64,000 nucleotides of DNA from an uncultured Chloroflexia bacterium (GTDB lineage: Bacteria > Chloroflexota > Limnocylindria > Limnocylindrales > CSP1-4). This document shows, piece after piece, positions 14,859-30,471 of the stretch. Both the position numbers and the translations under genes were made by a program. Position 1 is the stretch's first letter. Every line of letters starts with the position of its first letter. The notes under the pieces are model-generated. The model saw only the letters and a list, made by a program, of their open reading frames with translations. It had not been told where the DNA came from and ran no database searches. Location: assembly GCA_963838285.1 (NCBI GenBank), contig CAWIQP010000011.1, forward strand, positions 75,917 through 139,916, read 5' to 3'.

Positions 14859-15286
14859 GCCAGTTCCCGTATTGCCGGGCCGTGGCGTCGACCGGCACGC
14901 TGCACCCGGAGGAGGGACCCAGGGTTCGGAGGCTGGCTTCGTGTCGGCAGATCCGGGCCACGCTGGGACCTCTCCATTCGAATCGCATTCCGTGTGCAAC
15001 CGCCAGTCCTACCCCGCTGGCGGCTCGGCCGGTCAAAGCGGGCGGTACCACGGCCACCGGGCCGCCCGCAGCCGGCTCCCCATTTCCGATCCCAGCCGAC
15101 TCGTGCGCCCGCGGGCGCGAGCCGGCCCATGCCGCCGGCGGCGGCCAGAGAGCGGTACCCCTGGTAGACTCTCCGATGGATCGCGAGGGAGCGGGCATCG
15201 AACCCGGCCCCGCGGCCGCCTGAAGGACAACCTCGCGCCCGACGCCGCAGACGCATCGCCGCGTGCGACGGGCCGGCTGGAGAACG

Positions 15287-15643
15287 ATGACCGGCATCTG
15301 GTACGTAGTCGGCTTGGCGTTCGCGGGGGTTTCTTTCGTCTTCCTCGTGATCGGCCTGGCCTGGCTGATATCGCACCGAAACCGCGGCGATCGCCACAAG
15401 GGACTGCCCTACGAGAGCGGCATCGACACCTACGGCGACACCTGGGGCCGGTCGGCCATCTCGTTCTACGTGTACGCCCTGCTCTTCGTCGCCTTCGACG
15501 TGGAGGTCGTCTTCCTCTACCTGTGGGCGATCGTCTTCCGCGATCTGCTGATCGGCGGCCTGGTGAGCATGGGCACCTTCGTCGTGGTCCTGATGCTCGG
15601 GCTGGCCTACGCGTGGCGGAAGGGAGTCCTGACGTGGCGGTAG
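15287..15643 (+). CDS. nuoA: NADH-quinone oxidoreductase subunit A
   Basis: MTGIWYVVGLAF...DTYGDTWGRSAISFYVYALLFVAFDVEVVFLYLWA; GGAGAACG RBS before ATG 15287 (ORF track starts at GTG 15263). Confidence 0.9.
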   Translation: MTGIWYVVGLAFAGVSFVFLVIGLAWLISHRNRGDRHKGLPYESGIDTYGDTWGRSAISFYVYALLFVAFDVEVVFLYLWAIVFRDLLIGGLVSMGTFVVVLMLGLAYAWRKGVLTWR

Positions 15644-15865
15644 GCGGTCGAGCGCCCAAGGGACGCGAAGCGGCGACCGGCCGCGGGCTCGCGCCCGCAT
15701 CCAGGGGCGAGGTGACCGCCCCGATCGTGGTTCCCAACACTCTGTGGCAGTCGGCCGATCCGCTCGCCTACGACGGCGGCGCGGCCCACGGACATCACCC
15801 ATCTGCGCGAGTTCGGTCTTACGGCCGCGGCCCGTGACGACGCCGCCCGCTGGGGAGCGCTCCAG

Positions 15866-16351
15866 GTGATCCCCACCAACGCGGACTACATCCTCGATCT
15901 CATCCGCGCCAACAGCCTGTGGCCGCTCCTGTCGGGCCTGGCCTGCTGCGCGTTCGAGATGATGTCGGGCGCCACGAGCAAGTTCGACATGGACCGCTGG
16001 GGGATGTTCCCGTTCCGCGCCTCTCCCCGCCAGGCCGACGTGCTCATCGTCGCCGGGACGCTGACGACCAAGATGTCGGGCCCTCTCGTGCGGCTCTGGG
16101 AGCAGATGCCCGAGCCCAAGTGGTGCGTCGCGCTGGGAGACTGCACGGTCTCGGGCGGACGCTACAAGCGCAGCTACTCCGTGGTCCAGGGAATCGACCG
16201 GGTCATGCCGGTGGACGTCTACATCCCGGGCTGCCCGCCGCGCCCCGAAGGCCTGATCTACGGCATGCTCCAGCTCGGTCAGCTCGTCAAGGACCGCCGC
16301 GGTCACTGGGACGAGCGCGAGATCGGCCCGACCGCACCGGACGACATCTGA
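15866..16351 (+). CDS. nuoB: NADH-quinone oxidoreductase subunit B (N2 cluster)
   Basis: NSLWPLLSGLACCAFEMM...RASPRQADVLIVAGT...GDCTVSGG...YIPGCPPRPE; GTG start; N-terminus may extend upstream. Confidence 0.9.
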   Translation: MIPTNADYILDLIRANSLWPLLSGLACCAFEMMSGATSKFDMDRWGMFPFRASPRQADVLIVAGTLTTKMSGPLVRLWEQMPEPKWCVALGDCTVSGGRYKRSYSVVQGIDRVMPVDVYIPGCPPRPEGLIYGMLQLGQLVKDRRGHWDEREIGPTAPDDI

Positions 16352-16354
16352 CCG

Positions 16355-16912
16355 ATGGATCGAACCCTCAAGGCCCGGCTCGAAGAACGCCTCGGCGACC
16401 TGCTGCGCGCCCCGGTCTACCAGCGCCACGACGAGACGGAGATCCGCATCGAGCCGGGCAGCGTTCCCGAGGTGCTGCGGCGGCTCCACGACGCCCGCGA
16501 CCTGCGGTTCGAGATCCTGGCCGACCTCGCCGGCGTGGACACGGGCGAGGTCATGCAGGTCGTATACCACCTGTGGAGCCCGATCTCCTCGGACTGGCTG
16601 CGGGTCATCGCCGACGGCATCTCCCGCGAAGACCCTCGCGCGCCCTCGGCGACCTTCCTCTGGATCGGCGCCGAATGGCTGGAGCGCGAGGCCTACGACA
16701 TGTACGGCATCGTCTTCGAGGGCAACCGCGACCTGCGCCGCATCTTCATGCCGCCCGACTACACGAGCTTCCCGCTCCGCAAGGACTTCCTCCTGCCCGA
16801 CGACGCGGCCCGATCGCCTGGCGCCGGCGTTCGCCACATGGAGCGAGCCCACGGCCCGGCCGTCACGGCCGACGATCCGGCCGCCGGCATCCGCCGCGCG
16901 CCGGCGAGTTGA
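16355..16912 (+). CDS. nuoC: NADH-quinone oxidoreductase subunit C (30 kDa)
   Basis: ATG 4 nt after nuoB stop; EREAYDMYGIVFEGNRDLRRIFMPPDY motif. Confidence 0.9.
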   Translation: MDRTLKARLEERLGDLLRAPVYQRHDETEIRIEPGSVPEVLRRLHDARDLRFEILADLAGVDTGEVMQVVYHLWSPISSDWLRVIADGISREDPRAPSATFLWIGAEWLEREAYDMYGIVFEGNRDLRRIFMPPDYTSFPLRKDFLLPDDAARSPGAGVRHMERAHGPAVTADDPAAGIRRAPAS

Positions 16913-17035
16913 GGACCGCGATGCCAGACCGCCAGCCCGCCCCACGCCCCCAGCCGGCCCGCTCGAAGAAGCGCGGCGCCGCGCCGGAGCCGCAACCGCA
17001 GCCGCAAGCCGCGGCAGTCCGCGGACGACCCGCGC

Positions 17036-18217
17036 GTGATGCTGGACCGGCAGATTGGCGCGCTGTTCGAGCCGATTCCGCCCTACCCGACCCGGACCGA
17101 GCGCGAAGGCGAGTTCTACAGCCTGGGCGACGGCGAGATGTTCCTCAACATCGGGCCTCACCACCCGGCCACTCACGGCGTCCTGCGCCTCGTCATGAAG
17201 CTCTCGGGCGAGCAGATCGTGGACGTGGATCCCGTTCTCGGCTACCTCCACCGCGGCGTGGAGAAGATCTGCGAGAACTCCGACTACTACCACGTCATCG
17301 ACCAGGTGGACCCGCTCGAGTACATCAGCTCGCTGTTCCAGGAGTGGGCCGCGGTCCTCTCCTTCGAGAAGCTCATGGACGTGCAGGTCCCGCGCCGGGC
17401 GGAGTACATCCGCGTCCTGTCGGGCGAGCTGCTCCGCATCGCCAGCCACACCCTCTTCATGGGCTTCCTGGCGCTGGACCTGGGCGGCCTTACGCCGATC
17501 CTGTACAGCTTCATCGAGCGTGACGAGATCGTCGAGATGCTGGCGTCCCTGACCGGGGCCCGGATGCTGTTCAACTACTTCCGCATCGGCGGCGTCAACG
17601 GCGACCTCAACCACGAGTTCATGAGCCGCCTGGGCGACTGGATGACCCGCGCCGCGAAGCAGACCGAGGCCCAGGCCGGGCTGCTCAACGAGAACGAGAT
17701 CTTCGTCCGGCGAATGCGGGGCGTGGGCGTCCTGGACCGCGCCACCGCCATCCGCTACGGGGTCACGGGCGGCAACCTCCGCGCCGCCGGCGTTCCGTTC
17801 GACCTGCGGCGAGCCCACCCCTACAGCGTCTACCCGGAGCTGGACTTCAACATCCCGACCCGCGACGAGGGCGACTCGCTGGCGCGCTACCTGATCCGCG
17901 TCGACGAGATCCGCGAGTCGATCAAGATCGTCGACCAGTGCCTGCACAACATGCCCGACGGCCCGGTGATGGCCAGCCTGCCGCGGCTCATCCGGCCGCG
18001 TCCCGGGCGCGCCTGGGGGGCATGCGAAGGGCCGCGCGGGATGCTCGGCGTGTACACGATCAGCGACGGCTCCAACCACCCGTTCCGCTTCCGCATCCAC
18101 GACCCGAGCTTCCTGAACCTCGAGACCGTGCCGGCGCTGCTGCCGGGCAATCTGCTGGCCGACACGATGGCCATCGTCTCATCGCTTGACCCGGTCATGG
18201 GCGGGATCGACAAGTGA
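17036..18217 (+). CDS. nuoD: NADH-quinone oxidoreductase subunit D (49 kDa)
   Basis: MFLNIGPHHPATHGVLRLVMKLSGE...GYLHRGVEK...; 393 aa. Confidence 0.95.
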   Translation: MMLDRQIGALFEPIPPYPTRTEREGEFYSLGDGEMFLNIGPHHPATHGVLRLVMKLSGEQIVDVDPVLGYLHRGVEKICENSDYYHVIDQVDPLEYISSLFQEWAAVLSFEKLMDVQVPRRAEYIRVLSGELLRIASHTLFMGFLALDLGGLTPILYSFIERDEIVEMLASLTGARMLFNYFRIGGVNGDLNHEFMSRLGDWMTRAAKQTEAQAGLLNENEIFVRRMRGVGVLDRATAIRYGVTGGNLRAAGVPFDLRRAHPYSVYPELDFNIPTRDEGDSLARYLIRVDEIRESIKIVDQCLHNMPDGPVMASLPRLIRPRPGRAWGACEGPRGMLGVYTISDGSNHPFRFRIHDPSFLNLETVPALLPGNLLADTMAIVSSLDPVMGGIDK

Positions 18218-19620
18218 GCAACGCCGCCACGCCCGCCCCGGGCCGCATGCGCTCCGCGATCGGCTTCATGCGGAGCTTCCCGGCCGAGTTCTGGGGCCGC
18301 CTGTCGCTCGTCGAGCGCCTGGCCCTGATCTTCGTCCCGGCCGCCATCGTGGCGGCGGTGGTAACCGTTCTGGCCATCGTCCTGCTCGGTCCGCCGTTCC
18401 TGGACTTCCTGGGAGCCAACCTGCCGCTCGTCCGCTTCGCGGTCGCGGCCACGGCGATCCTGCTGCTGACGGTGCCGACGGCCTTCGTCCTGATCTACCT
18501 CGAGCTCAAGGTCATCGCCCGGATGAACCTGCGCATCGGGCCCAACCGGGTGGGGCCGTGGGGCGCGGCGATGAGCCTGATCCACGGCTTCAAGGTCCTC
18601 TCCAAGGAGGACTTCGCCCCGACCGGCGCCGACATCACCGTCTTCACCCTGGCCCCGGTGGTGACCTACATGGCCAGCGTGATGACCCTCCTGGTCATCC
18701 CGTTCGCGCCGGGCCTGATCGGCCAGGATCTCAACATCGGCCTGCTGTACTTCTTCTCGATGGGCGGCCTGACCGTCGTGGGCCTGCTGATGGCGGGCTG
18801 GTCGAGCTTCAACAAGTACTCGCTCCTCGGCGGCCTGCGCTCGGCGGCGCAGATCGTCAGCTACGAGATCCCACTCACCCTCTCGGTCGTGGGCGTCATC
18901 GTCCTCGCCGGAACGATGAGCATGAACCGCATCGTGCTGGCCCAGTCGGGCTCGTTCCTCGACTGGTTCGTATTCAAGCAGCCCCTGGCGGCGCTCATCT
19001 TCTTCATCGCCGCCACGGCGGAGGCCAACCGCACGCCGTTCGACATGACCGAGGCCGACTCCGAGATCGTGGCCGGTTTCGCCACCGAGTACTCGGGGAT
19101 GCGCTTCGGCTTCTTCTTCTTCGCCGAGTACGTGAACGTCTTCATCATCTCGGCGCTCATCACCACGATCTTCTTCGGCGGCTGGACCGCGCCGTTCCAG
19201 TGGCCGTGGGCATACAACCTGAACTGGTTCAATCCCTGGTCGTTCGGCTTCTTCGGCTGGCTCGCCATCGTCCTGACCGTCGGCTACTTCGGGACAGTCT
19301 TCTTCGCCATCTTCGCCCGCCTCTTGGGCGGCCGCGAGTGGGGCCTGTGGTCCTCGATGGGCCTGGGCTTCCTGTTCCTGCTCGTGGTCGTCGCCGGCCT
19401 CGTCGTCCTGGCCGGCTTTGTCGCCTTCGACTGGGTCCAGGGACTGGTCTGGTTCATGGCCAAGACCTACGTCTTCGTCATCACCTTCGTCTGGATGCGG
19501 GCCACGCTGCCGCGCGTCAGGGTCGACCAGCTGATGGGCTTCGCCTGGAAATGGCTGCTGCCGGCCTCGCTTGTCAACCTCTTCGTGACGGCGACCGCCG
19601 TCGTCCTGCTGAACCGGTGA
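18214..19620 (+). CDS. nuoH: NADH-quinone oxidoreductase subunit H
   Basis: GTGA overlap with nuoD stop; ...LKVIARMNLRIGPNRVGPWG...ANRTPFDMTEADSEIVAGFATEYSGMRFGFFFFAEY; follows nuoD directly (no E/F/G between). Confidence 0.95.
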   Translation: MSNAATPAPGRMRSAIGFMRSFPAEFWGRLSLVERLALIFVPAAIVAAVVTVLAIVLLGPPFLDFLGANLPLVRFAVAATAILLLTVPTAFVLIYLELKVIARMNLRIGPNRVGPWGAAMSLIHGFKVLSKEDFAPTGADITVFTLAPVVTYMASVMTLLVIPFAPGLIGQDLNIGLLYFFSMGGLTVVGLLMAGWSSFNKYSLLGGLRSAAQIVSYEIPLTLSVVGVIVLAGTMSMNRIVLAQSGSFLDWFVFKQPLAALIFFIAATAEANRTPFDMTEADSEIVAGFATEYSGMRFGFFFFAEYVNVFIISALITTIFFGGWTAPFQWPWAYNLNWFNPWSFGFFGWLAIVLTVGYFGTVFFAIFARLLGGREWGLWSSMGLGFLFLLVVVAGLVVLAGFVAFDWVQGLVWFMAKTYVFVITFVWMRATLPRVRVDQLMGFAWKWLLPASLVNLFVTATAVVLLNR

Positions 19621-19627
19621 GCGCGCG

Positions 19628-20443
19628 ATGAGCTACGTTCCGGGCCTGGGCATCGCGAAGGGCATGGCGCTGACCATGCGCCGCTTCTTCGCGCCGAAGG
19701 CCACGATCCAGTATCCCGAGACCGCGCCCGACATCGCCGTCCGCTTCCGCGGCCGTCTGCAGCTGCTGTACGACGAACTGGGCAACATCAAGTGCGAAAC
19801 CTGCTTCCAGTGCGCCCAGGCCTGCCCCGTGGAGTGCATCGACATGGGCGGCTTCGACACTCGGGGCCGCTTCCACGTCCACTGGGGCGCGGCCGAGATG
19901 TACGCCGAGCGGCGCGAGGAGTCGGCCCTGAGACGGTCCGGACGGCCCGTGCCCGACCCCGTCTACAGCCACTTCGACTCGATCGACACGGCCGCGGTGG
20001 ACAGCATCCTGGCCAGGTACGACTTCGACGGGGCCGAGATGCTGCCCATCCTCGAGTCGATCCAGGGCGCCTACGGCTACCTGCCCGTGGCCGCCCTCAA
20101 GCGAGTGAGCGAGGTCTCCGGGGCTCCGTACGCGCTCATCTACGGCACCGCCACGTACTACGGCCACCTGCGCTTCGACAAGCCCGGACGCAGCGTGGGC
20201 GTCTGCCGCTGCACGTCCTGCATCCTGGCCGGCTCCAGCCGGATCCACCGCGTGCTCGCCAGGGAGCTTGGGACGGAGATTGGCCGGCGGCCGGCCCCGG
20301 GCGGAGTGGCGCTGGAGCAGATCCCCGCCCACGTCCCCGGCGCGTCCTCGCCGCTCGTCACGCTCGATGGCTCGCCACAGCAGGTGACCGCCGCCGGCGC
20401 CGCGGCCTGGGCCCGCGCCCTGGTCGGGAGGAACGTGGCATGA
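19628..20443 (+). CDS. nuoI/nuoE: chimeric NuoI N-terminal half (single 4Fe-4S motif) fused in frame to a NuoE-like thioredoxin-fold domain
   Basis: aa 1-70 KATIQYPE...RFRGRLQLL...CETCFQCAQACPVECI = NuoI first CxxCxxCxxxCP only (no second motif in any frame 19860-19990); aa ~110-230 ILARYDFDGAEMLPILESIQGAYGYLPVAALKRVSEVSG...VGVCRCTSCILAGS = NuoE, but second Cys pair is replaced (EQIPAHVPGASSP). Confidence 0.7.
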   Translation: MSYVPGLGIAKGMALTMRRFFAPKATIQYPETAPDIAVRFRGRLQLLYDELGNIKCETCFQCAQACPVECIDMGGFDTRGRFHVHWGAAEMYAERREESALRRSGRPVPDPVYSHFDSIDTAAVDSILARYDFDGAEMLPILESIQGAYGYLPVAALKRVSEVSGAPYALIYGTATYYGHLRFDKPGRSVGVCRCTSCILAGSSRIHRVLARELGTEIGRRPAPGGVALEQIPAHVPGASSPLVTLDGSPQQVTAAGAAAWARALVGRNVA

Positions 20444-21777
20444 CGTCCGCCGCCATTCTCGCGACCCCGGCCCGCTTCCCGCGCCTTCTCCTCCCGGCGA
20501 CCCCGGGGCGGGACCCGCTGGATCTCGACGCCGCGGTTGCGGCCGGCGCCTTCACCGCACTGAAGGCCGCGGTGAACGATCTCAAGGCGGAGGGCGTGAT
20601 AGCCGCGCTGGTCGAGTCCGGGATGCGCGGCCGTGGCGGCGGCGGCTTCCCGATCGGCGAGAAGTGGCGAGCCTGCGCCGCTGCCGAATCCGATCGCCGC
20701 TACGTCGTGGTGAACGCCTATCAATCCGACCCGGCGGTGATGACCGACCGCGTTCTGCTGGAGGTCAACCCCTACGCGGTCGTCGAGGGCGCCGCGATCG
20801 CGGCTTTCGCCGTCGGCGCGAGCGAGGTGATCGTCGCGGTCCGGGCCGAAGCCACGGACGCGATCCGGGCCATGGAGTCGGCCGTGGCGGAGGCCGAGTC
20901 GGCCGGCTTCATCGGGGCTGACGTCCTCGGCACCGGGACGGAGATCCGCTTCTCGGTCAGGCCGCTGCAGGGCTCCTACATGCTCGGCGAGGAGACGGTC
21001 CTGCTGAAGGGCCTGGAGGGCAAGCGCGGCCAGCCGGAGCAGCAGCCGCCGTACGTCACCACTCGCGGCCTCTTCGGAGCGCCGACCCTGATCCACGGAC
21101 CGCAGACCTTCGCCGCCGTCCCGACCATCCTGTCCGGCGGCATCGCCGGCTTCCCGGAGACCGGGGCGCGGGCTTTCGCGGGCACCGTCCTGGTCCAGAT
21201 CTCCGGTACGGTCGCCCAGCCCGGAGTCGCCGAGGTTCCGTTCGGCGTCACACTTCGGGAGGTCCTCGACGTCGCTGGCGGCGTTCCCGCCCCGCATCGG
21301 CTCAAGGCCGTGCTGGTAGGCGGCCCGTCGGGTGGCATCCTGCCGCCGGAGGGTCTGAGCGTCGGCTTCGACCACGACTCCCTGGCGAAGGCGGGCGCGT
21401 ACGTCGGTTCCGGGTCGATCGTCGTCGTGGATCAGCACGGCTGCGTCGTGGACCTGGCCGCGGTCCTGACCCGCTTCTGCGCCGATCAGGCCTGCGGAAA
21501 GACGATCCCCTGCCGGATCGGCCTGCGGCGGCTGGCCGAGATCGGCGCCCGGATCTGCGAAGGACAGCCGCGCGGCGACGAGATAACCCGCCTGACCGAC
21601 CTCTCCGCCGACATAGTCGGCAGCGCCCTGTGCGACCACGAGCGTCGCGCCACGCTCGCCATGCTGAGCGTCGTCCGGTACTTCCGCGACGAGCTCGACG
21701 CCCACATCGTCCGTAACACCTGTCCCGCCGGGATCTGCCAGCCCAAGGCAGATGCCCGTGCCGGGACCGTTTCCTGA
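20440..21777 (+). CDS. nuoF: NADH-quinone oxidoreductase subunit F (51 kDa, FMN/NADH, N3)
   Basis: ATGA overlap with upstream stop; ESGMRGRGGGGFPIGEKW, GEETVLLKGLEGKRG, CGKTIPCRIG...C cluster motifs. Confidence 0.95.
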   Translation: MTSAAILATPARFPRLLLPATPGRDPLDLDAAVAAGAFTALKAAVNDLKAEGVIAALVESGMRGRGGGGFPIGEKWRACAAAESDRRYVVVNAYQSDPAVMTDRVLLEVNPYAVVEGAAIAAFAVGASEVIVAVRAEATDAIRAMESAVAEAESAGFIGADVLGTGTEIRFSVRPLQGSYMLGEETVLLKGLEGKRGQPEQQPPYVTTRGLFGAPTLIHGPQTFAAVPTILSGGIAGFPETGARAFAGTVLVQISGTVAQPGVAEVPFGVTLREVLDVAGGVPAPHRLKAVLVGGPSGGILPPEGLSVGFDHDSLAKAGAYVGSGSIVVVDQHGCVVDLAAVLTRFCADQACGKTIPCRIGLRRLAEIGARICEGQPRGDEITRLTDLSADIVGSALCDHERRATLAMLSVVRYFRDELDAHIVRNTCPAGICQPKADARAGTVS

Positions 21778-21785
21778 GGCGTCCC

Positions 21786-24596
21786 ATGCGAGAACCGACC
21801 CCCCGCCCCAGCCCCAGCGCATCGCCCTCGACCGCGAAGTCCCGGAAACCCGGCAAGGCGGCGAAATCGGCCCCGCTGGACTCGGCTCCGGTGGAGGCAA
21901 CCACGATCGCCCCAATCAATGCCGTCGCCCCGGCGTCGGCGGCCCTTGAGGCCTACGAGGAGCGTCCCGTCGAGTCGTTGCGCGGGCTGCGGCCGCAGGC
22001 CAACCAGAAGGCCGTTTGGAACAAGCGCGCCGGCCGGCCGGACAGCCGGCCGGACTCCAGGACGCCCTACGACACCGTGGTGCCGTTCGACGACTCGCTG
22101 GCGGAGCGACTGATCACGACCCAGGCTCCCCAGCGCCCGCTCTCGACGCCCACCTTCCGCCTCTCGGTCGACGGCCGCGTGGTCGAGGGCACCGAGGGCC
22201 AGACGATCCTGGAGGTCTGCCGCGCCAACGGCATCGAGATCCCGACGCTCTGCTACGAGCCAAAGCTGCCGGGCTTCGGGGCCTGCCGTATGTGCGTCGT
22301 CGAGGTCGACGGCGAGGAGCACCCGCCCATCTCCTGCTCCCGCGCCGCAGAGGCCGGGATGGTCGTTCGAACCCAGACCGAGCAGCTCCGCCGCCTGCGC
22401 CGCACGAATCTCGAGCTGATCTTCAGCGACCACAACGCCTACTGCCTGCCGCCCTGCCAGAACAAGTGCCCCAGCCACATCGACATCCCGGGCTTCCTCA
22501 AGGCCAACGCCGAGGGGCAGTTCCGGGAGTCGGCCCGCATCTTCAAGCGGACCATCCCCTTCCCGTCGATCCTGGGTCGCGTCTGCCCCGCCCCGTGCGA
22601 GGACCACTGCCGCCGCGACGAGGTGGACGAGGCCATCGCCATCCGGGACAGCCACCGCTACGCCGGCGACACGGTTCTCGCGGCGCAGAAGAACGGCATC
22701 GAGCCGCCGCTGCCGTTCGAGACGTCGCCGAAGACGGGCAGGCGGGTGGCGATCGTCGGGTCCGGGCCGGCCGGAATGGCCGCGGCTTACTACCTGCTCC
22801 TGTCCGGCCACGACGTCACCGTCTTCGAACGCGACCCGGAGCCCGGCGGAATGCTCCGCTACGGCATCCCCGAGTACCGCCTCCCGAAGGCCGACGTCCT
22901 CGAGCCCGAGTACGAGGCCGTCTGGCGCCTCGGCGCGCGGCTGGAGTGCAACAAGGCGCTCGGTCGGGACTTCAGCCTGGACGACCTGCGGGACCAGGGC
23001 TTCGACTCGACCATCGTCGCCACCGGCTGCTACGACACGAACAAGCTCAACATCCCCAACGAGAACGCCGACGGAGTCATCGACGGCCTGGAGTACCTGC
23101 GGATCGCCACGCTCGGGCTCCCGTACCCGGGCCACAAGGGCAGCCGGGTGGTGGTCGTGGGCGGCGGCTTCACGGCCATGGACTGCTGGCGGACCTCGAT
23201 CCGGCAGGGCGCAAAGCAGGTTACGCTCGTCTACCGCCGCGACATGAAGGACATGCCGGCCTCGAGCGAGGTCCACGAGGCCCTCGAGGAGGGCGGCACC
23301 GCCGTCTTCCAGGCCGGCCCCACCCGGGTCCTCGTCGACGCGAACAACAAGGTCACCGGCGTCGAGTTCATCCGCATGCGGCCCGGCGCGCCCGACGCGA
23401 GCGGCCGGCGCCGCCCCGAGCCCGCCCCCGGAACCGAGTTCGTGGTCGAGTGCGACCGCGTCCTGCTGGCCATCGGCCAGGGGCCGGACCTGTCGTGGAT
23501 CGGACCCGGCAACGAGGGCGTGGCCGCGGTCAAGTACAAGCTCGCCGCCGACGCGGTCACGTTCGAGACCGGCAGGCCGGGCGTCTTCGGCGCCGGGGAC
23601 GTCCGGATCGGGGCCGCGACCGTCGTCCAGGCCATCGCCGAGGGCCGCCGCTGCGCCTATGCCGTCGACGCCTACCTCAAGGGCAACGACCTGACCGAGC
23701 TGCGGACGCGCCAGACGCTGGCCGAAGTGGAGCCGACCTTCCTCTCGATCGTGCCCTACACCGACGAGCCCAAGGAGGCTCGCCACCGTCTCAAGGCGAT
23801 GCCGGCGAAGGAGCGGTCCAGGAGCTACGTCGAGTACGAGATCCCGTACACGCCGGCGGAGGTCATGGCCGAGTCCACCCGCTGCCTGCAGTGCACCTGC
23901 GAGGCGCTGGGCAACTGCGACCTGCGCCGCCTCGGCATCGAGTACGGGACGACTCTACCGACGCTCGAGCCGGGCCACGATCAGGGCGCCGGCTTCCGGA
24001 GCGTCACCGAGAACCGCTTCACCGGCGCCAACCACGACTACATCCGCGACGACAGCCACGCCTTCATCCTGCGCGAGCCATCTCGCTGCATCGACTGCGG
24101 GCGCTGCGCCGCCGTCTGCGCGGACGTCGTGGGTGCGGCCTGCTACGACTTCATGCGGACCGGCTTCGACACGCTCGTGACGACGCCGCTGGACATGAGC
24201 CTCAACGACACGCCGTGCGTCTCCTGCGGCCGCTGCGCCGAGACGTGCCCCACGGGCGCGCTGATGCCCAAGCCGCGCGTCCTCGAGAAGTACGACGTCG
24301 ACGAAAGCCGCTGCATCCTGTGCGGCATCTGCGTCGACGCCTGCCCCTACGACGCCCTGCGCGGCGGTCAGGACAACGAGCTCGCCCACACCAGCCGGGC
24401 CAACCCGGAGGTCGATCTGATCGGGCTGGCCGCCGTCGAGCGCGAGACCGAGGTGACCTACGTCCGGCGCGAGCGCGACTGGCTGGCCCACGCCCTCGCC
24501 GAAGGACGCGTCGAGGACCCGGCGAGGATGCTGCCGGCCCTGCCGCAGTCCCTCGCCCCCGCCCGGAGCAATCGCAGGGGGGCAGATCGCCAATGA
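21786..24596 (+). CDS. chimeric Fe-S flavoprotein: NuoG-N-terminal-like 2Fe-2S/His-Cys3 domain + GltD-like FAD/NAD(P)H oxidoreductase + C-terminal 2x[4Fe-4S] ferredoxin, in the position of nuoG
   Basis: Pro/Ala-rich N-terminus; FRLSVDGRVVEGTEGQTILEVCRANGIEIPTLCYEPKLPGFGACRMCVVEV (NuoG/Nqo3 N1b-like); HNAYCLPPCQNKCPSHIDIPGFL...RVCPAPCEDHC (GltD-type); RVAIVGSGPAGMAAAYYL...GGMLRYGIPEYRLPK; CIDCGRCAAVC...CVSCGRCAETCP...CILCGICVDACP; no Mo-bisPGD-like NuoG C-terminal domain. Confidence 0.8.
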   Translation: MREPTPRPSPSASPSTAKSRKPGKAAKSAPLDSAPVEATTIAPINAVAPASAALEAYEERPVESLRGLRPQANQKAVWNKRAGRPDSRPDSRTPYDTVVPFDDSLAERLITTQAPQRPLSTPTFRLSVDGRVVEGTEGQTILEVCRANGIEIPTLCYEPKLPGFGACRMCVVEVDGEEHPPISCSRAAEAGMVVRTQTEQLRRLRRTNLELIFSDHNAYCLPPCQNKCPSHIDIPGFLKANAEGQFRESARIFKRTIPFPSILGRVCPAPCEDHCRRDEVDEAIAIRDSHRYAGDTVLAAQKNGIEPPLPFETSPKTGRRVAIVGSGPAGMAAAYYLLLSGHDVTVFERDPEPGGMLRYGIPEYRLPKADVLEPEYEAVWRLGARLECNKALGRDFSLDDLRDQGFDSTIVATGCYDTNKLNIPNENADGVIDGLEYLRIATLGLPYPGHKGSRVVVVGGGFTAMDCWRTSIRQGAKQVTLVYRRDMKDMPASSEVHEALEEGGTAVFQAGPTRVLVDANNKVTGVEFIRMRPGAPDASGRRRPEPAPGTEFVVECDRVLLAIGQGPDLSWIGPGNEGVAAVKYKLAADAVTFETGRPGVFGAGDVRIGAATVVQAIAEGRRCAYAVDAYLKGNDLTELRTRQTLAEVEPTFLSIVPYTDEPKEARHRLKAMPAKERSRSYVEYEIPYTPAEVMAESTRCLQCTCEALGNCDLRRLGIEYGTTLPTLEPGHDQGAGFRSVTENRFTGANHDYIRDDSHAFILREPSRCIDCGRCAAVCADVVGAACYDFMRTGFDTLVTTPLDMSLNDTPCVSCGRCAETCPTGALMPKPRVLEKYDVDESRCILCGICVDACPYDALRGGQDNELAHTSRANPEVDLIGLAAVERETEVTYVRRERDWLAHALAEGRVEDPARMLPALPQSLAPARSNRRGADRQ

Positions 24597-24645: not shown

Positions 24646-25194
24646 ATGCCGATAGGCGACTCGATCCCGCTGCTCGGGATCCGCTGGGACGACATCCTGT
24701 TCGTCGTTCTGTCCGCCACGCTTCTCGTGTCGGCCCTGATGGTGGTCACGCTGCGCGACATCATCCGCTGCGGCCTGGCCCTGATCGTCTCGTTCGCGTC
24801 CCTGGCGGGCATCTACGCCCTGCTCGGCGACCCGCTCATCGCCGCCACGCAGGTGCTCGTCTACATCGGCGCCATCAGCATCCTGATCCTGTTCGCGATC
24901 ATGATGACCCAGACGAAGGACGCGCCGGCGAGGCTGGTCTTCCAGACTCAGGCCTGGCTCGCCGCCGGCGCCGCGGCGGTCATCGCGGTGGTGATCGCCG
25001 CGACGGTTCTGGCCACGACGTGGCCCGCCGGCGGGCAGCGCCTCTGGACCGCCACCGCGGACGTCGCACATCTGCTCTTCCACGACTACGTTCTGCCGTT
25101 CGAGGTGGTCAGCGTCCTGCTGACGGCGGCGGTCGTCGGGGCGGTCTACCTGGCCCGCCGCGAGCCCAGCCGGCACGAGGAGGATCGGTCGTGA
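24646..25194 (+). CDS. nuoJ: NADH-quinone oxidoreductase subunit J
   Basis: GGAGGGAGG RBS; 5 TM ...ATQVLVYIGAISILILFAIMMTQ. Confidence 0.9.
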   Translation: MPIGDSIPLLGIRWDDILFVVLSATLLVSALMVVTLRDIIRCGLALIVSFASLAGIYALLGDPLIAATQVLVYIGAISILILFAIMMTQTKDAPARLVFQTQAWLAAGAAAVIAVVIAATVLATTWPAGGQRLWTATADVAHLLFHDYVLPFEVVSVLLTAAVVGAVYLARREPSRHEEDRS

Positions 25195-25502
25195 GCAACT
25201 CGCTCGACTCGTACCTGGTGCTGTCCGGCCTCCTCTTCGCCATCGGCACGTTCGGCTTCCTGGCCCGGCGCAACGCGATCAGCATGCTCATGTCGATCGA
25301 GCTGATGATCAACGCCGTCAATCTGACCATCCTGGCCTTCGGGGCGTTCGTGCCGCCGCTGAACGGGCACGCGGCGGTCATCGCCCTGATCGTGATCGCG
25401 GTCGCGGCGGCCGAGGCGACGGTGGGCCTGGCGATCGTCGTGGCCATCTACCGGAACCGCAAGACGCCGCTGGTCGACGAGTACGACTCGATGAAGGACT
25501 AG
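25191..25502 (+). CDS. nuoK: NADH-quinone oxidoreductase subunit K
   Basis: GTGA overlap with nuoJ stop; LFAIGTFGFLARRNAISMLMSIELMINAVNL. Confidence 0.9.
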   Translation: MSNSLDSYLVLSGLLFAIGTFGFLARRNAISMLMSIELMINAVNLTILAFGAFVPPLNGHAAVIALIVIAVAAAEATVGLAIVVAIYRNRKTPLVDEYDSMKD

Positions 25503-25506
25503 GGCG

Positions 25507-27463
25507 ATGAATCTTCCTCATCCCGCTGATCCCGCTGCTGCCCCTGGCCGGCTTCGCCGTCACCGGCCTGTTCGGCCGCGCGATGGGCCGGGAGTCGCAC
25601 CGGATCGCCATCTGGGCGGTCGTGGCCTCGTGGATCGTGGCGATGGTCGTCGCCTTCGGCGCCCTGGCCCACGTCGGCATCGCCGCGGCAGGCATCGACG
25701 TCAAGCTCTGGGACTGGATCCCGGCCACCGGCTTCCACGCCGACTTCGGCTTCTTCGTCGATCCGCTGACGGCCTGCCTGCTGATCGTGGTCACGACCAT
25801 CGGCATGCTCGTCCACATCTACTCGATCGGCTACATGGCCCACGACGCCGGCAAGTGGCGCTTCTTCGCCTACCTGAACCTGTTCATGTTCTCGATGCTC
25901 GTGCTGGTCCTGGCCGACAACTTCCTGCTCGTCTTCGCCGGCTGGGAGCTGGTGGGCCTGTGCAGCTACCTGCTGATCGGGTTCTGGTACCCGCGCCGGT
26001 CCGCGGCCGAGGCCGCCAAGAAGGCTTTCCTGGTCAACCGCGTCGGCGACATGGGCTTCGCCCTCGGGATCATGGCCATCTGGACCCAGCTCGGCACTCT
26101 CAACATGCAGCAGGTCTTCGCCGCGTTCGGAAGCGTCCCGCACGAGTGGCAGATCGCCATCGCCGCGCTTCTGCTCTGCGGCGCGGTCGGCAAGAGCGCC
26201 CAGTTCCCGCTCCACGTCTGGCTGCCGGACGCGATGGAGGGCCCCACGCCGGTCTCCGCCCTGATCCATGCCGCGACCATGGTCAACGCCGGCGTGTACC
26301 TCGTGGCCCGCTGCAACCCGATCTTCGGCGCCGCGCCCGAGGTGATGGTCGTCGTGGCCGCGATCGGCATCTTCACCGCCATCCTGGCCGCTTCGATCGC
26401 GTTCACCCAGACCGACATCAAGCGCGTCCTGGCCTACTCGACGCTCTCCCAGCTGGGCTACATGTTCGCCTCGCTGGGCGTCGGGGCGTGGACGGCGGCG
26501 ATCTTCCACCTGATGAGCCACGGCTTCTTCAAAGGCCTGCTCTTCCTCGACTCCGGCTCGGTCATCCACGCCGTCGACGGCGAGCAGGACATGCGCAAGA
26601 TGGGCGGCCTGGCGAAGAAGATTCCCGTCACCTACGCGACGATGCTCATCGGCTCGGTGGCCATCTCCGGCGTCCCGCCGCTGGCCGGGTTCTTCTCCAA
26701 GGACGAGATCCTGGGCGGCGCCTTCAAGAACGGCTTCCTGTGGGTCTGGGCGATCGGCTTCGCCGTCGCCGGCATGACCGCCTTCTACATGTTCCGGCTC
26801 ATGGGCCTGACCTTCTGGGGCGAGAGCCGCGTCGACCCGGAGAAGGAATCTCACATCCACGAGTCGCCGCCGTCGATGACCCGGCCGCTCATCCTGCTGG
26901 CCATCCCGGCGGTCTTCCTGGGCATGCTGATCGGCTTTCCGCCTGAATCGGGGCTGCTCCACCAGTGGCTCCAGCCGGTCTTCGAGGCCACCGTCGCGGC
27001 GAGCGGCCGGACAGAGGCCGCCTACAACTTCTTCGGCATCGACGGCGCGCTGGCAATCGGGACGACGGGCCTCGTGGCAATCGCCATAGTCGTGGCCTGG
27101 CGACTCTTCGGCGTGGACATGCCGGCCCTGGGTCTGCGGGCTCAGCCGCGCCCCGAGCGCGTTCGTGAGATCAGCGCCAGGCCGGGACTCGCCTTCCTGT
27201 ACCGCGGCTCCTCGAACAAGTGGTGGTTCGACGACCTGTACAACCTGCTCTTCGTGGTCTGGGGCGGCAGGCTCGCGGCCGCGGTCTTCTGGTTCGACCG
27301 CACGATAGTCGACGGCACCGTCAACGGCGTCGGCGCCGTGACCACCGGCGCGGGCGTCAGGCTCCGCCGCGTCCAGACGGGCCACGTCCAGAACTACGCC
27401 CTCGGCATCGCTCTCGGCCTGATCGTCATGGCCGTCGGCTACATCCTGATCGCGGTTCGGTAG
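25507..27463 (+). CDS. nuoL: NADH-quinone oxidoreductase subunit L, with apparent 1-bp insertion near 25516
   Basis: ATG 25507 MNL then frame shifts to FLIPLIPLLPLAGFAVTGLFGRAMGRE (ORF 25583..27463); removing one C from CTTCCTC restores MNLLIPLIPLL; antiporter-like body with long C-terminal horizontal helix. Confidence 0.9.
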
Positions 27464-27475
27464 GAGGAAGAGACG

Positions 27476-28999
27476 ATGAGCCTGCCGATCCTGAGCCTGA
27501 TCACGTTCACGCCGCTCGTCGGGGCGCTCGTGGTCGCCGTCCTGCCGTCGCGCCGCCCCGACCTCATCCGGCGCACCACCCTGGGCTTCACGCTGCTGGC
27601 ATGGGTCATGTCGCTGCTGCTGCTCGCGGCCTACGCCTTCGGCCAGACCGGCTTCCAGTTCAAGGAGGCGGCCGACTGGATCCCGTCCTTCGGCATCCAG
27701 TACAAGGTGGGCGTCGACGGCCTGAGCGTCCTGATGGTCGTGCTGACGACGACCCTGACGTGGATCAGCGTGCTGGCCAGCTTCGGCCCGATCAAGGACC
27801 GAGTGAAGGGCTACATGATCTCCTTCCTCGTCCTCGAGGTCGGCATGATCGGCGTCTTCGTCGCCCTGGACCTCTTCCTGTTCTACATCTTCTGGGAGAT
27901 CGTCCTGGTCCCGATGTACCTGATCATCGGCATCTGGGGCGGCGCCAACCGCGTCTACGCGACGATGAAGTTCGTGCTGTACACGCTCGTCGGGTCGCTG
28001 CTGATGCTGGTCGCGATCCTCGCCACGGCCTACGCCTACCAGGTGGCGCACGCCGGTTCCTGGGTCGGAGCCTTCGACTACGTGCAGCTCCAGCAGTTCG
28101 CGGCCTCCGGCGGCTTCGGTGACAACTTCCAGATCCTTGCCTTCCTGGCGCTCTTCCTGGCCTTCGCCATCAAGGTGCCGATGTTCCCGTTCCACACCTG
28201 GCTGCCCGACGCCCACACCGAGGCGCCCACGGCCGGCTCGGTGATCCTCGCCGGCGTCCTGCTCAAGCTCGGCGCCTACGGCCTGATCCGGTTCGCGGTG
28301 CCGCTCTACCCCTACGGGGCTCACACGTTCGCCTGGCCGATCATCGTCCTGAGCGTCATCGCCATCGTCTACGGCGCGATCGTGTCGATCGTCCAGCCCG
28401 ATCTCAAGCGCCTGATCGCCTACAGCTCGGTCAGCCACATGGGCTTCGTGACGCTCGGAATCTTCGTGTTCAGCGCCACCGCCCTCCAGGGCGCGATCCT
28501 GCAGATGATCAACCACGGCCTGATCACGGGCGGCCTCTTCCTCCTCGTCGGCGTCGTCTACGAGCGGACCCACGACCGAACCATCGCCAAGATGGGCGGT
28601 CTGGCGGCGGCGATGCCGATCTGGGCGACGGTCTTCGGCTTCTTCATCCTGGCCTCCGCCGGCCTGCCCGGCCTCTCCGGCTTCGTCGGCGAGTTCCTGG
28701 TCTTCGTCGGGTCGTTCGGGATCGCGCCGGTTATCGCGGTGGCCTCGATCATCGTCATGGTCCTGGCCGCCACCTACCTGCTGTGGATGTTCCAGCGCGT
28801 CGCCTTCGGCGTGCTGTCCGACTTCCTGCGAGGCCTCGGCGGTCACCTGACCGACATGACCGGGACCGAGCTGGCGACGCTCCTTCCGCTCGCCGCGCTG
28901 ATCGTCGTGCTCGGGCTGTTCCCGAGCCTCGTGCTCGATCTCCTCCGCGCTCCCGCCCAGGCGTTCCTGGCGGCGGCCGGAGTCGCGGTCGGCGGCTGA
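27476..28999 (+). CDS. nuoM: NADH-quinone oxidoreductase subunit M
   Basis: 507 aa antiporter-like subunit; ...FPFHTWLPDAHTEAPTAGSVILAGVLLKLGAYGLIRF. Confidence 0.95.
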   Translation: MSLPILSLITFTPLVGALVVAVLPSRRPDLIRRTTLGFTLLAWVMSLLLLAAYAFGQTGFQFKEAADWIPSFGIQYKVGVDGLSVLMVVLTTTLTWISVLASFGPIKDRVKGYMISFLVLEVGMIGVFVALDLFLFYIFWEIVLVPMYLIIGIWGGANRVYATMKFVLYTLVGSLLMLVAILATAYAYQVAHAGSWVGAFDYVQLQQFAASGGFGDNFQILAFLALFLAFAIKVPMFPFHTWLPDAHTEAPTAGSVILAGVLLKLGAYGLIRFAVPLYPYGAHTFAWPIIVLSVIAIVYGAIVSIVQPDLKRLIAYSSVSHMGFVTLGIFVFSATALQGAILQMINHGLITGGLFLLVGVVYERTHDRTIAKMGGLAAAMPIWATVFGFFILASAGLPGLSGFVGEFLVFVGSFGIAPVIAVASIIVMVLAATYLLWMFQRVAFGVLSDFLRGLGGHLTDMTGTELATLLPLAALIVVLGLFPSLVLDLLRAPAQAFLAAAGVAVGG

Positions 29000-29010
29000 G
29001 AGGAGATGGC

Positions 29011-30471
29011 ATGAGCTGGTCCGACGTCGGAACGATCTCGCCGGTCGTCATCGCCGTCCTGGTCGCGGCGGCGATCCTGGTCGTCGACATGGCCGTGCCC
29101 GGCCGGCGTACCCCGATTCTCGTCACCGCCCTGGGCGGCCTGGGCATCGTGGCCGTGGCGATCCTGATCCAGGCGGGCCACGGCGGCAGCGCCTTCGACG
29201 GCGCCTACTCCCTCGACAACCTGACCGTCTTCCTCGACATGCTGTTCGTGGCCATCGCGGCCCTGACCATCATGTTCGCGGTCGACTACCTGGAGCCGCG
29301 CGGCCTGCCCCTCGCCGAGTTCGCGGCGGTCCTGGTCTTCGCCATCACCGGCGCGATGCTCGTCGCCGGCTCGACGGACCTGCTGCTTCTCTTCGTCGCC
29401 CTGGAGCTGATGGTCCTGCCCGGCTATATGCTGGCCGGCTTCGCTCGGCGCGACCCGTACTCGACCGAGGGCGCGATCAAGTACTTCCTGCTCGGCTCGT
29501 TCTCGAGCGCGATCCTGCTCTTCGGCCTGGCCTACGACTGGGGGATGACCGGCACCACGAGCGTTGCCGGCGTGTCCGCGGCCCTCGCCACGGCCATCGC
29601 CCACGGCTCGATCCAGCCTGGCCTGGCCCTGGGTCTGGCCTTCATGACCGCCGGCGTCGCGTTCAAGATGGCGGCCGTGCCGTTCCACTACTGGACTCCG
29701 GACGCGTACCAGGGCTCGCCGACACCCGTCACGGCGTACCTGTCCGTGGGCCCCAAGATCGGCGCCTTCGCCATCGCCCTGCGCCTCTTCGTCGGCGCGC
29801 TCGGCCCGCTCAAGGCCGACTGGCTGCCCGTCGTCATCGTCCTGGCCGCTCTCACGATGACCCTCGGCAATCTGGTGGCGATCAGCCAGGACAACGTCAA
29901 GCGAATGCTGGCCTACTCCTCCATCGCCCACACCGGCTACATCCTGGTCGGCCTGGCGGCCTACGCCGGCGGCCAGCAGAGCGGCCTATCGGCGATCCTG
30001 TTCTACGGGGCCGCCTACACGTTCATGAACATGGGCGCCTTCGCGATCATCGCCGCTCTGCAGCGGCGGCCGGGAGTGAGCAGCCAGATCGCAACGTTCG
30101 CCGGGCTGGGCCGGCGCGATCCCTGGCTCGGCGCGCTGATGGCGCTCTTCCTGCTGTCGCTGACCGGCATCCCGCCGCTCGCCGGCTTCTGGGCCAAGGC
30201 CTACGTGATCCTGGCCGCTATCCAGGCCGGCGGATGGCTCACCGCCCTGGCGGTCCTGGCGATGATCAACGCGGCGGCGGCGGCCTTCTACTACCTGCGG
30301 GTCGTGGTCTACATGTACATGCGCGAGCCCGCCGAGGAGACCGCGCCGAGTTCCCCCGGACGGCTGTTCCGGACCGGCCTGGCGGTCACGGGCGTGGCGA
30401 CGCTCGTCTTCGGGCTCTTCCCGGCCCTCGTGACGGCAGCCAGCAACGCCGCGAACGTCTTCCGCGGCTAG
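29011..30471 (+). CDS. nuoN: NADH-quinone oxidoreductase subunit N
   Basis: GAGAGGAG RBS; ...AAVPFHYWTPDAYQGSPTPVTAYLSVGPKIGAFAI. Confidence 0.9.
   Translation: MSWSDVGTISPVVIAVLVAAAILVVDMAVPGRRTPILVTALGGLGIVAVAILIQAGHGGSAFDGAYSLDNLTVFLDMLFVAIAALTIMFAVDYLEPRGLPLAEFAAVLVFAITGAMLVAGSTDLLLLFVALELMVLPGYMLAGFARRDPYSTEGAIKYFLLGSFSSAILLFGLAYDWGMTGTTSVAGVSAALATAIAHGSIQPGLALGLAFMTAGVAFKMAAVPFHYWTPDAYQGSPTPVTAYLSVGPKIGAFAIALRLFVGALGPLKADWLPVVIVLAALTMTLGNLVAISQDNVKRMLAYSSIAHTGYILVGLAAYAGGQQSGLSAILFYGAAYTFMNMGAFAIIAALQRRPGVSSQIATFAGLGRRDPWLGALMALFLLSLTGIPPLAGFWAKAYVILAAIQAGGWLTALAVLAMINAAAAAFYYLRVVVYMYMREPAEETAPSSPGRLFRTGLAVTGVATLVFGLFPALVTAASNAANVFRG

Follow-up and report, generated by a model that had tools for sequence, protein, structure and literature searches.

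A reduced Nfn/Stn-type cassette inside nuoI in a complex I operon of Limnocylindria: a candidate dual-entry NAD(P)H:quinone oxidoreductase

The present work concerns a stretch of 64,000 nucleotides from an uncultured Chloroflexia bacterium assigned to the Limnocylindrales (Limnocylindria; NCBI GenBank assembly GCA_963838285.1, contig CAWIQP010000011.1, positions 75,917 to 139,916 of the forward strand), hereafter called the window, which carries a nuo operon, i.e., the genes for the subunits of respiratory complex I. The analysis was focused on the open reading frame (ORF) at positions 21786-24596 (+ strand), which begins with ATG and codes for a protein of 936 residues, here called G'. The genes of the operon follow one another in the order A-B-C-D-H-[I'::E]-F-[G'::I'']-J-K-L-M-N, where I' and I'' are the N-terminal and the C-terminal half of NuoI and the double colon marks a fusion. 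The initial annotation regarded this ORF simply as the occupant of the nuoG position; the E-F-G' block instead lies inside nuoI, the first half of which is fused to a NuoE-like protein (here IE, 271 residues, ORF 19628-20443, two genes 5' of G'). Judging from the sequences, the locus is thus a three-gene cassette inside nuoI, the outermost genes of which are each joined in frame to one half of NuoI.

The in-frame G+C content at third codon positions (GC3) of G' stays at 0.93-1.0 between approximately codons 60 and 905, which indicates a coding sequence, and the strings quoted in the initial annotation (IPTLCYEPKLPGFGACRMCVVEV, GMVVRTQT, HNAYCLPPCQNKCP, SHIDIPGFL, RVCPAPCEDHC, RVAIVGSGPAGMAAAYYL, and GGMLRYGIPEYRLPK) were all retrieved from the protein. 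Residues 1-120 (21786..22145, +) form a low-complexity extension, with a mean identity to the relatives of 29%, a predicted local distance difference test score (pLDDT) below 50, and a GC3 of 0.82, then 0.95. Disorder is predicted for these approximately 120 residues, in which Pro, Ala, and Ser abound; alternative starts in the same frame occur at codons 36, 65, and 98/99, and most of the extension is lacking from the Thermoleophilia proteins described below.

The extension is followed by a [2Fe-2S] domain of the NuoG N1b / HydA type (22155..22400, +), whose NuoG-like character, already proposed from the sequence, was confirmed by Pfam (Fer2_4 at residues 124-198, E 2e-20); its cysteines (C156, C167, C170, and C184) are conserved in 70 of 72 sequences. 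Positions 2-100 of the TIGR01973 NuoG model are matched as well, with 87.5 bits versus a cut-off of 470. The NADH-G_4Fe-4S_3 family is represented only by a partial match (residues 205-221, the first 17 positions of the model, below the Pfam gathering score), and the N5 motif is kept only as H216-x3-C220, 32 residues past the last N1b cysteine, and is then broken off by the GltD-like insertion (22401..23690, +). The GltD-like nature of the middle region stood up to the Pfam check (Fer4_20 at 220-299, E 3e-17; Pyr_redox_2 at 320-620, E 3e-24). Its Fe-S ligands (H216/C220/C224/C228 together with C267/C271/C275) correspond to two [4Fe-4S] sites, and they are accompanied by an FAD Rossmann fold (VAIVGSGPAG) and an NADPH Rossmann fold (VVVVGGGFTAMD...VYRRDMKDMPA). 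The FAD and NADPH motifs (GGGFTAMD...YRR...MPA) are intact, and the binding of both cofactors is predicted from them.

The C-terminal part consists of an Fe-S relay and of a two-cluster ferredoxin domain of the HydA/NfnA type (23883..24254, +; NfnA/StnC alignments and Pfam), with C700-x2-C703-x-C705-x5-C711, then C768..C778 and C811..C821P; Pfam places Fer4_Nqo3 at 761-826 and Fer4 at 837-859. Where two CxxCxxCxxxCP motifs had been reported, three CxxCxxCxxxC motifs exist (768, 811, and 843), although two of them do end in CP. No molybdopterin-domain match was obtained with Pfam in G', which means that the C-terminal two-thirds of NuoG are absent, as initially stated. Hence, with respect to NuoG/Nqo3, the N1b and N4-type motifs are present and an intact N5 and the C-terminal domain are not.

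In the PDB sequence search, residues 124-853 of G' are collinear with NfnA of Caldicellulosiruptor (9bov_A 4-699, E 2e-158), StnC of Sporomusa (8oh5_C, E 7.5e-140), and the archaeal NfnA of Thermococcus (9n5u_A, E 1.7e-137), the relay region aligning to 9bov_A 553-676 and 8oh5_C 551-700. GltD-only proteins (NfnB 4ylf_B, E 4e-76; NfnI-L 5jca_L; GltD 2vdc_G; dihydropyrimidine dehydrogenase, DPD, 1h7x_A) align only to residues 221-635. Of the NfnB/StnC/SfrB-type architecture that had been suggested, the comparison with StnC is therefore borne out by the collinear alignment, and NfnB of NfnAB and SfrB share nothing but the GltD domain. The same three proteins (9bov_A, 8oh5_C, and 9n5u_A) ranked first in a Foldseek search with an AlphaFold model of G', which was built with a 74-sequence alignment and used only for this ranking. 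NfnA and StnC are known to combine a [2Fe-2S] domain, an inserted GltD-like NADPH/FAD domain, NuoG-type clusters, and an inactive formate-dehydrogenase-like domain (PMC10482914; PMC11829005). G' possesses the N-terminal HydA/NuoG-type [2Fe-2S] domain, the inserted GltD-like domain with two [4Fe-4S] sites, the C-x2-C-x-C-x5-C site, and the two-cluster ferredoxin domain; it does not possess the formate-dehydrogenase-like C-terminal domain with cluster A5. It ends 83 residues after C853, and the NfnA/StnC alignments stop at about residue 700 of chains of 1172-1178 residues. By homology, G' is an NfnA/StnC protein in which the C-terminal half of NuoI, with its second cysteine motif, takes the place of the formate-dehydrogenase-like domain.

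The two halves of NuoI can be recognized on the two fusion proteins. In IE (19628..19975, +), residues 9-73 align to the NuoI/TYKY chains 7a23_D (76-140) and 8qby_I (18-81) of the PDB, and residues 12-74 to positions 1-62 of the 121 of the NCBIfam NuoI model TIGR01971. This half contains the N-terminal helix region, a single motif (C56-x2-C59-x2-C62-x3-C66-P), and a conserved linker; the four cysteines of the motif are invariant in all 64 relatives (64/64), and the second motif is never present. A fifth cysteine, C70, lies right after the motif (CP-V/I-E-C70) in 63 of the 64 aligned sequences, the residue being Val in the one exception and in the Thermoleophilia locus L003. In G' (24255..24500, +), residues 831-873 correspond to positions 71-113 of TIGR01971, whose profile is fully covered only by summing the two halves. 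The tail of G' also matches positions 100-149 of the 204 of PRK05888 (NuoI) and aligns to 7a23_D 152-187 and 8qby_I 93-134, that is, to the second cysteine motif of NuoI and the segment that follows it. NuoI is the best single-stretch PDB match of this tail, with 45 bits against no more than 21 bits per repeat for polyferredoxins, and the cysteines of its motif (KYDVDESRC843-x2-C846-x2-C849-x3-C853-P-YDAL...ELA...R) are conserved in 71 of 72 sequences. The two CxxCxxCxxxCP motifs that a NuoI of about 160-200 residues carries on one polypeptide are here on two, and no intact nuoI was detected with Pfam in the operon or in the 64-kb window.

This affects the C-terminal di-cluster ferredoxin of the initial annotation, which in all likelihood is not self-contained: motifs 768 and 811 make up the HydA/NfnA-type domain, and motif 843 belongs to NuoI as its second half. 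In the solved structures of HydA, NfnA, and StnC, two clusters are bound jointly by the counterparts of motifs 768 and 811, which leaves one orphan motif on each protein, 843 in G' and 56-66 in IE. A cluster of the 2x[4Fe-4S] fold is ligated by three cysteines of one motif and a single cysteine of the other; IE and G' would therefore have to meet for the assembly of the N6a and N6b clusters, which NuoI binds between NuoG and NuoB. A self-contained C-terminal ferredoxin (Fer4_7 at 811-857) was considered and rejected on the basis of motif accounting and solved-structure homology; it is retained as a low-probability alternative and discussed below.

The second part of IE (19976..20443, +) is a NuoE/BfuC-like thioredoxin-type domain (Pfam 2Fe-2S_thioredx at residues 125-248, E 3e-18), the best PDB matches of which are NfnC 9n5u_C, StnA 8oh5_A, and NfnC 9bov_C. 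Only two of the four [2Fe-2S] cysteines are left in it, the second pair being replaced by AHVPGASSP, and cluster C1 of BfuC, which is part of the B1-FMN-C1 flavobicluster, is lacking in the window. Across Limnocylindria, the NuoE/BfuC domain decays stepwise and the N-terminal NuoI part remains invariant throughout. IE has 271 residues and two of four cysteines in the window, 221 residues without the cluster region at locus L001 (7979-8644), and about 170 residues in some long contigs (P0431, P0433, and P0434); in most Limnocylindria, the NuoE domain is truncated and the IE proteins have 170-240 residues. The 271-residue IE is thus, on these alignments, the N-terminal half of NuoI with the first cysteine motif joined to a BfuC/NuoE remnant.

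The NuoF/BfuB-like FMN/NADH subunit (20440..21777, +; 445 residues; Pfam Complex1_51K, SLBB, and NADH_4Fe-4S) scores higher against Bfu proteins of the PDB (HydB 8a6t_B, 347 bits; StnB, 329; NfnB, 328/322) than against NuoF of complex I (M. smegmatis, 287 bits; E. coli, 237; Thermus, 231), and it retains the CPAGxC hinge of BfuB. It aligns only to HydB 148-573, and no Fer4 or thioredoxin-like Pfam match was found in it; the N-terminal thioredoxin-like domain of BfuB and its C-terminal 2x[4Fe-4S] (B3/B4) ferredoxin-binding domain are absent from the window protein. Moreover, the N3 motif (21475-21510, residues 346-358) reads FC-x4-CGK(T/S)IPC in place of SCGKCxPC: the middle cysteine is replaced by Thr or Ser, and an upstream cysteine appears. 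C347, C352, C358, and C398 are kept in 60-63 of 65 Limnocylindria sequences. According to these data, NuoF would be a BfuB core stripped of its accessory domains. The assignment of NuoF and of the NuoE part to the Bfu type is based on the ranking of PDB bit scores and on the CPAGxC hinge, not on a tree; it suggests that the whole input module, and not only NuoG, is of Stn/Nfn origin.

The remaining genes, all on the + strand, are those of a quinone-reducing complex I. Upstream of the cassette lie nuoA (15263..15643; Pfam Oxidored_q4, E 2.8e-31), nuoB (15866..16351; Oxidored_q6, E 1.3e-26), nuoC (16355..16912; Complex1_30kDa, E 6e-35), nuoD (17036..18217; Complex1_49kDa, E 3e-84), and nuoH (18214..19620, 468 residues; NADHdh at residues 81-460, E 1e-102); downstream lie nuoJ (24646..25194; Oxidored_q3), nuoK (25191..25502; Oxidored_q2), whose GTG start overlaps the nuoJ stop, nuoL (25583..27463; Proton_antipo_N, _M, and _C), nuoM (27476..28999; Proton_antipo_M), and nuoN (29011..30471; Proton_antipo_M). 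NuoA, B, C, D, H, J, K, L, M, and N were thus all ten detected in the window with Pfam. The N2 cysteines of NuoB (tandem CC, GDC, and GCPP) can be read straight from the sequence, and NuoD finds its top PDB matches in Thermus Nqo4 (311 bits) and in NdhH (about 305 bits), versus 137-197 bits for Mbh/FHL proteins. The ten core subunits, the N2 cysteines, and a NuoD of the complex I type are what characterizes a quinone-reducing complex I; by these matches, NuoD is of the quinone-reducing complex I / NDH-1 type. Compared with the Thermus sequence, GPHHPATHGV and LEY in NuoD presumably hold the equivalents of His38 and Tyr87. The NADHdh model (298 positions) is stretched across residues 81-460 of NuoH, which points to insertions of about 80 residues and an N-terminal extension. 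The annotation of L001 gives a longer NuoB, of 242 residues.

As for expression, the translational coupling proposed for nuoF was verified, its start overlapping the upstream stop in ATGA; the gap to the G' ORF, given as 9 nt, is actually of 8 nt (nuoF stop at 21777, ATG at 21786), and a GAGG lies 6 nt 5' of the ATG. The signal scan retrieved no promoter-like site (0 found) and six terminator-like sites, versus 4.2 ± 2.1 expected, none of which falls (+ strand) at 21786 or 24596. The gene overlaps and the lack of border signals are consistent with the co-transcription of G' with the nuo genes that had been proposed. The Rfam scan of the window retrieved no RNA family. Two intergenic gaps are long, nuoA-nuoB (222 nt, 15644-15865) and nuoC-nuoD (123 nt, 16913-17035), unlike the rest of the operon, which is tightly packed or overlapping.

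The protein family search retrieved hundreds of relatives of G', 76-93% identical to it, those with a name belonging to Candidatus Limnocylindrales or Chloroflexota. The phylogenetic distribution was checked in a scan of species representatives, one genome each, the query being an alignment of the junction between the ferredoxin domain and NuoI-C: at least 561 species-level genomes carry the junction, mostly Limnocylindria, and the best 80 of these at least 561 genomes are almost all labelled as Limnocylindria or Chloroflexota metagenome-assembled genomes (MAGs). The order B-C-D-H-IE-F-G-J-L-M occurs without exception in 84 loci, wherever the contig flank suffices. All 32 cluster cysteines of G' and H216 are kept in 70-72 of 72 sequences, and those of the relay and the ferredoxin domain (C700-C821) in 71-72 of 72. 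The mean identity to the window is 78% for the FAD/NADPH region, 91% for the GltD Fe-S region, and 89-94% for the Fe-S relay; it is 36% for the last 25 residues of G'. Judged by identity, the GltD-like domain appears to be as conserved as the rest of the protein.

The public labels of these proteins are diverse: homologues of G' are called "formate dehydrogenase major subunit", "FAD-dependent oxidoreductase", or "glutamate synthase beta subunit-like", and those of IE "NAD(P)H-dependent oxidoreductase subunit E, partial", "ferredoxin", or "hypothetical". With such labels, pathway-completeness tools would score the genomes as devoid of NuoG and NuoI and, hence, of a complete complex I.

Outside Limnocylindria, the nearest proteins found in an exhaustive search of representatives are StnC/NfnA-like, with 1100-1250 residues and about 40% identity. 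One protein of 816 residues (P0132) has the same NuoI-C tail as G', and its relatives are Thermoleophilia MAG proteins of about 825 residues. The Thermoleophilia loci L003, L004, L085, and L086 harbor a split nuoI and the gene order of the window, and the G'/NuoI-C junction is conserved. Three of them (L003, 7330-12451; L085, 7311-12475; L086, 7375-12475) have a complete BfuB/BfuC: the BfuB, of 630-638 residues, retains the N-terminal thioredoxin-like domain, SCGKCVPCR, the hinge, and two C-terminal CxxCxxCxxxC motifs, and the BfuC part has all four cysteines. Each subunit is 30-52% identical between the Limnocylindria and Thermoleophilia clades, suggesting that the operon diverged as a unit; given the complete BfuB/BfuC of Thermoleophilia, the form in the window is best explained by reduction from a full Nfn/Stn-type Bfu module that had been inserted in nuoI. 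The NADPH motif is kept in most Thermoleophilia. A subclade (P0132, P0273, and P0276) is without the YRR...MPA signature (e.g., LSPCARADMTAPP) and keeps the FAD motif and all the clusters.

In our opinion, it is highly probable that the operon codes for a complex I with a reduced BfuC-BfuB-BfuA (Nfn/Stn-type) cassette inside nuoI, as far as the anatomy alone is concerned. The reading as a whole, that of a non-bifurcating dual-entry NAD(P)H:quinone oxidoreductase, seems to us somewhat better than an even bet; it predicts a proton pump that would burn NADPH besides NADH. NADPH use and the direction of electron flow are putative, and the electron paths are those that we infer by homology to the solved NfnABC and StnABC structures. 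In these, electrons run along FAD-A7-A6-A3-A2-A1-B1-FMN, and A4/A5 form a dead-end branch off A2 (PMC11829005; PMC10482914). In the enzyme of the window, the two NuoI halves would join on NuoB/D/H and jointly ligate N6a and N6b, clamping the input module to the Q-module. Electrons from NADH would enter through the FMN of NuoF, an N3-like cluster, and the [2Fe-2S] cluster, and those from NADPH through the FAD of the GltD-like domain and its two [4Fe-4S] clusters, both routes leading to the ferredoxin-domain clusters of G'. Electrons would leave by the branch that leads nowhere in Nfn/Stn; in the sequence, NuoI-C follows the ferredoxin domain where cluster A5 would be, and from there they would reach N6a/N6b, N2, and finally quinone, driving proton pumping by NuoH and NuoJ-N. 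As C1 and B3/B4 are missing, no bifurcation is expected in the lineage of the window, according to the criteria of PMC11829005.

Several points weigh against this dual-entry enzyme. All the hosts are uncultured MAGs, the case is built on sequence, and the search for nuoI covered the operon and the 64-kb window. The AlphaFold model of G' is confident for the [2Fe-2S] and GltD domains and has a pLDDT below 50 over residues 726-897, which makes it uninformative on the fold of the tail. Furthermore, a free exchange between the two flavins would short-circuit the NADH and NADPH pools; gating would then be needed, and none is visible in the sequence. The degenerate NADPH site of the Thermoleophilia subclade implies, moreover, that the NADPH port is dispensable in some lineages. 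It is thus conceivable that the port is a relic, the GltD-like domain being kept as a structural or Fe-S scaffold in what is effectively an ordinary NADH:quinone oxidoreductase; P0132, P0273, and P0276 lost YRR/MPA and still keep the domain, and other ancestral parts (the NuoE cluster and the BfuB accessory domains) are decaying in Limnocylindria. Decay has, however, affected the parts really out of use, such as the NuoE cluster domain, whereas the FAD/NADPH motifs and all seven GltD-cluster ligands are conserved in Limnocylindria and in most Thermoleophilia, at levels of identity comparable to that of the Fe-S relay (78% for FAD/NADPH and 91% for GltD Fe-S); for this reason, we consider a relic port improbable. 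About equally improbable, in our view, is that the same architecture works in reverse, with the proton-motive force pushing quinol electrons onto NADP+ (and NAD+) and the NADPH serving biosynthesis or CO2 fixation on high-potential donors, or that it mainly equilibrates NADH and NADPH. Complex I is reversible, and the Nfn/Stn ancestors link NADH and NADPH via the same cluster chain; reverse flow has also been proposed for other odd nuo modules, e.g., NUO-2 of Nitrospina (PMC3578206). There is no sign of lithotrophy in the window, however, where the neighbors of the operon are housekeeping genes (DnaJ, ClpB, HPPK, and glycosyltransferases).

The two other alternatives deny that NuoI is reconstituted from its halves within one complex. 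Pfam joins motifs 811 and 843 as one Fer4_7 dicluster (Fer4_7/Fer4_9 covering 811-857) with the typical spacing of 21 residues, which is a further point against the reading preferred here: the pair could be a normal 2x[4Fe-4S] ferredoxin and IE a degenerate single-motif remnant, with another subunit or geometry linking G' to NuoB. This would leave motif 768, with its four cysteines (71 of 72 sequences), without a partner, although it pairs with the equivalent of 811 in NfnA, StnC, and HydA; moreover, both halves carry NuoI-specific flanks beyond the cysteine motifs, and a motif invariant in 64 of 64 IE sequences is not what a remnant would be expected to show, so that this solution appears quite unlikely. 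Least credible of all is that a soluble NADH/NADPH oxidoreductase of its own is made up of E, F, and G', next to an 11-subunit membrane complex of the ferredoxin type. Eleven-subunit nuo operons without the N-module are indeed common (PMC3144371; PMC4758237), and the closest solved relatives are soluble; nevertheless, the only NuoI sequence of the operon is divided between IE and G', and a membrane complex without them would have no N6a/N6b. The fusions are, in addition, invariant across two phyla, and the formate-dehydrogenase-like domain, which mediates tetramerisation in the soluble enzymes (PMC10482914), is missing.

If the dual-entry enzyme is real, a second, NADPH-specific flavin site on the same cluster chain would change the view of how reducing power enters respiration. 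Complex I, in bacteria as in mitochondria, is held to be strictly specific for NADH. The lineages concerned, Limnocylindria (Ellin6529) and Thermoleophilia, are very abundant, uncultured, and found in soil and freshwater. A 2x[4Fe-4S] subunit whose halves sit on separate polypeptides, each in fusion with its own subunit of the input module, would be an unusual solution for assembly and might serve as a dated "molecular fossil" of how a module was grafted onto the core of complex I. Where the N-module came from is a long-standing question of complex I evolution, for which the operon offers an independent case for comparison. In this respect, we can tentatively depict a scenario, which we hold to be possible rather than likely, where an 11-subunit complex I ancestor acquired its module independently of NuoEFG, through the insertion of bfuC-bfuB-bfuA (nfn/stn) into nuoI, with docking via the dead-end branch of Nfn/Stn and not via the canonical N5-N6a contact. 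The Thermoleophilia form would then be an electron-confurcating, proton-pumping enzyme of the membrane, linked to quinone and working with four substrates (NADH, ferredoxin, NADPH, and quinone), and the Limnocylindria form of the window a simplified aerobic descendant respiring NADPH directly.

As regards the surroundings of the operon, a Methyltransf_28 gene (13799-14852, +) lies directly 5' of nuoA and occupies the same place in L001 and L002. We take Methyltransf_28 to be the Pfam family that includes the complex I assembly factor NDUFAF7/MidA, and the conserved linkage to nuo suggests a possible role in NuoD methylation. In the window, the gene is spread over two frames (13799-14326 in frame 2 and 14313-14852 in frame 3); in L001, by contrast, it is a single uninterrupted ORF of 402 residues. 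The break may be either a frameshift (pseudogene) or an assembly error. Besides the housekeeping genes named above, the window harbors an ORF of 1753 residues with protein-O-mannosyltransferase (PMT) domains (40184-45445, -), adjoined by two ORFs of about 590 residues (46587-50118, +), one PMT/TMEM260-like and one without a Pfam match.

A split nuoI or a GltD-containing NuoG in Limnocylindria or Thermoleophilia was not found described in the open-access literature, subscription journals lying mostly outside this search. The system can nonetheless be compared with several known ones. With NfnABC/StnABC (9BOV/9BP5, 9N5U; 8OH5), it shares the [2Fe-2S] domain, the H-x3-C-x3-C-x3-CP junction, the GltD-like domain, the C-x2-C-x-C-x5-C site, and the two-cluster ferredoxin domain of G', as well as the gene order C-B-A (E-F-G), and BfuB and BfuC are the top-scoring counterparts of its NuoF and NuoE parts. 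It differs from them in that the formate-dehydrogenase-like domain and the A5 cluster are replaced by NuoI-C, BfuB is without accessory domains and BfuC without C1, so that the bifurcation site (PMC11829005) is incomplete, and the genes of the module lie within a nuo operon, with fusions to NuoI. With canonical complex I (NuoA-N/Nqo1-14), it has in common typical and complete sets of membrane-arm and Q-module subunits, the N1b-type [2Fe-2S] and N4-type ferredoxin domain of G', and a NuoI that is complete when its halves are summed. The differences are the order A-B-C-D-H-I'E-F-G'I''-J..N in place of A..N, a NuoI on two polypeptides, a NuoG without the molybdopterin-like two-thirds and with a GltD insertion that adds a second flavin, the loss of N1a, and the displacement of one N3 ligand (CGK(T/S)IPC with an upstream Cys).

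The predicted and uncharacterised "Nuo-Bfu" (Schut et al. 2022, PMC9304861), which has also been reported under the name NUO-2 in Nitrospina/Kuenenia (PMC3578206), is encoded by 14-subunit A-N clusters with a NuoG-like BfuA in Deferribacteres, Proteobacteria, Planctomycetes, and Nitrospirae (PMC9304861). There, as in the present case, NuoEFG is replaced by a BfuABC module amid a nuo cluster. The Thermoleophilia loci L003, L085, and L086 fit this pattern and are candidates for a membrane-bound Nfn-type "Nuo-Bfu", i.e., concrete candidates for this hypothetical bifurcating class; the GltD/NADPH domain and the split NuoI are not part of its description (PMC9304861). Degli Esposti (2015; PMC4758237) reported mbx-like operons in which a gltD-like flavoprotein substitutes for NuoI; these likewise place a GltD-family NAD(P)H flavoprotein on a complex-I-like membrane module at the NuoI position, but they are hydrogenase-related and of the Mbx type, whereas the window keeps a (split) NuoI, a three-subunit Nfn/Stn cassette, and a quinone-reducing host complex. 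NfnB/NfnL of NfnAB(SL), GltD, SudA, SfrB, and DPD I-III share with G' the GltD fold, two [4Fe-4S] clusters, FAD, and NADPH, and are without the NuoG-type [2Fe-2S] N-terminus, the HydA-type ferredoxin domain, and the NuoI tail. A complex I with an alternative input module is thus a known idea; the splitting of NuoI across two fusion proteins and the conserved NADPH/FAD entry site are the unexpected features of the operon analysed here.

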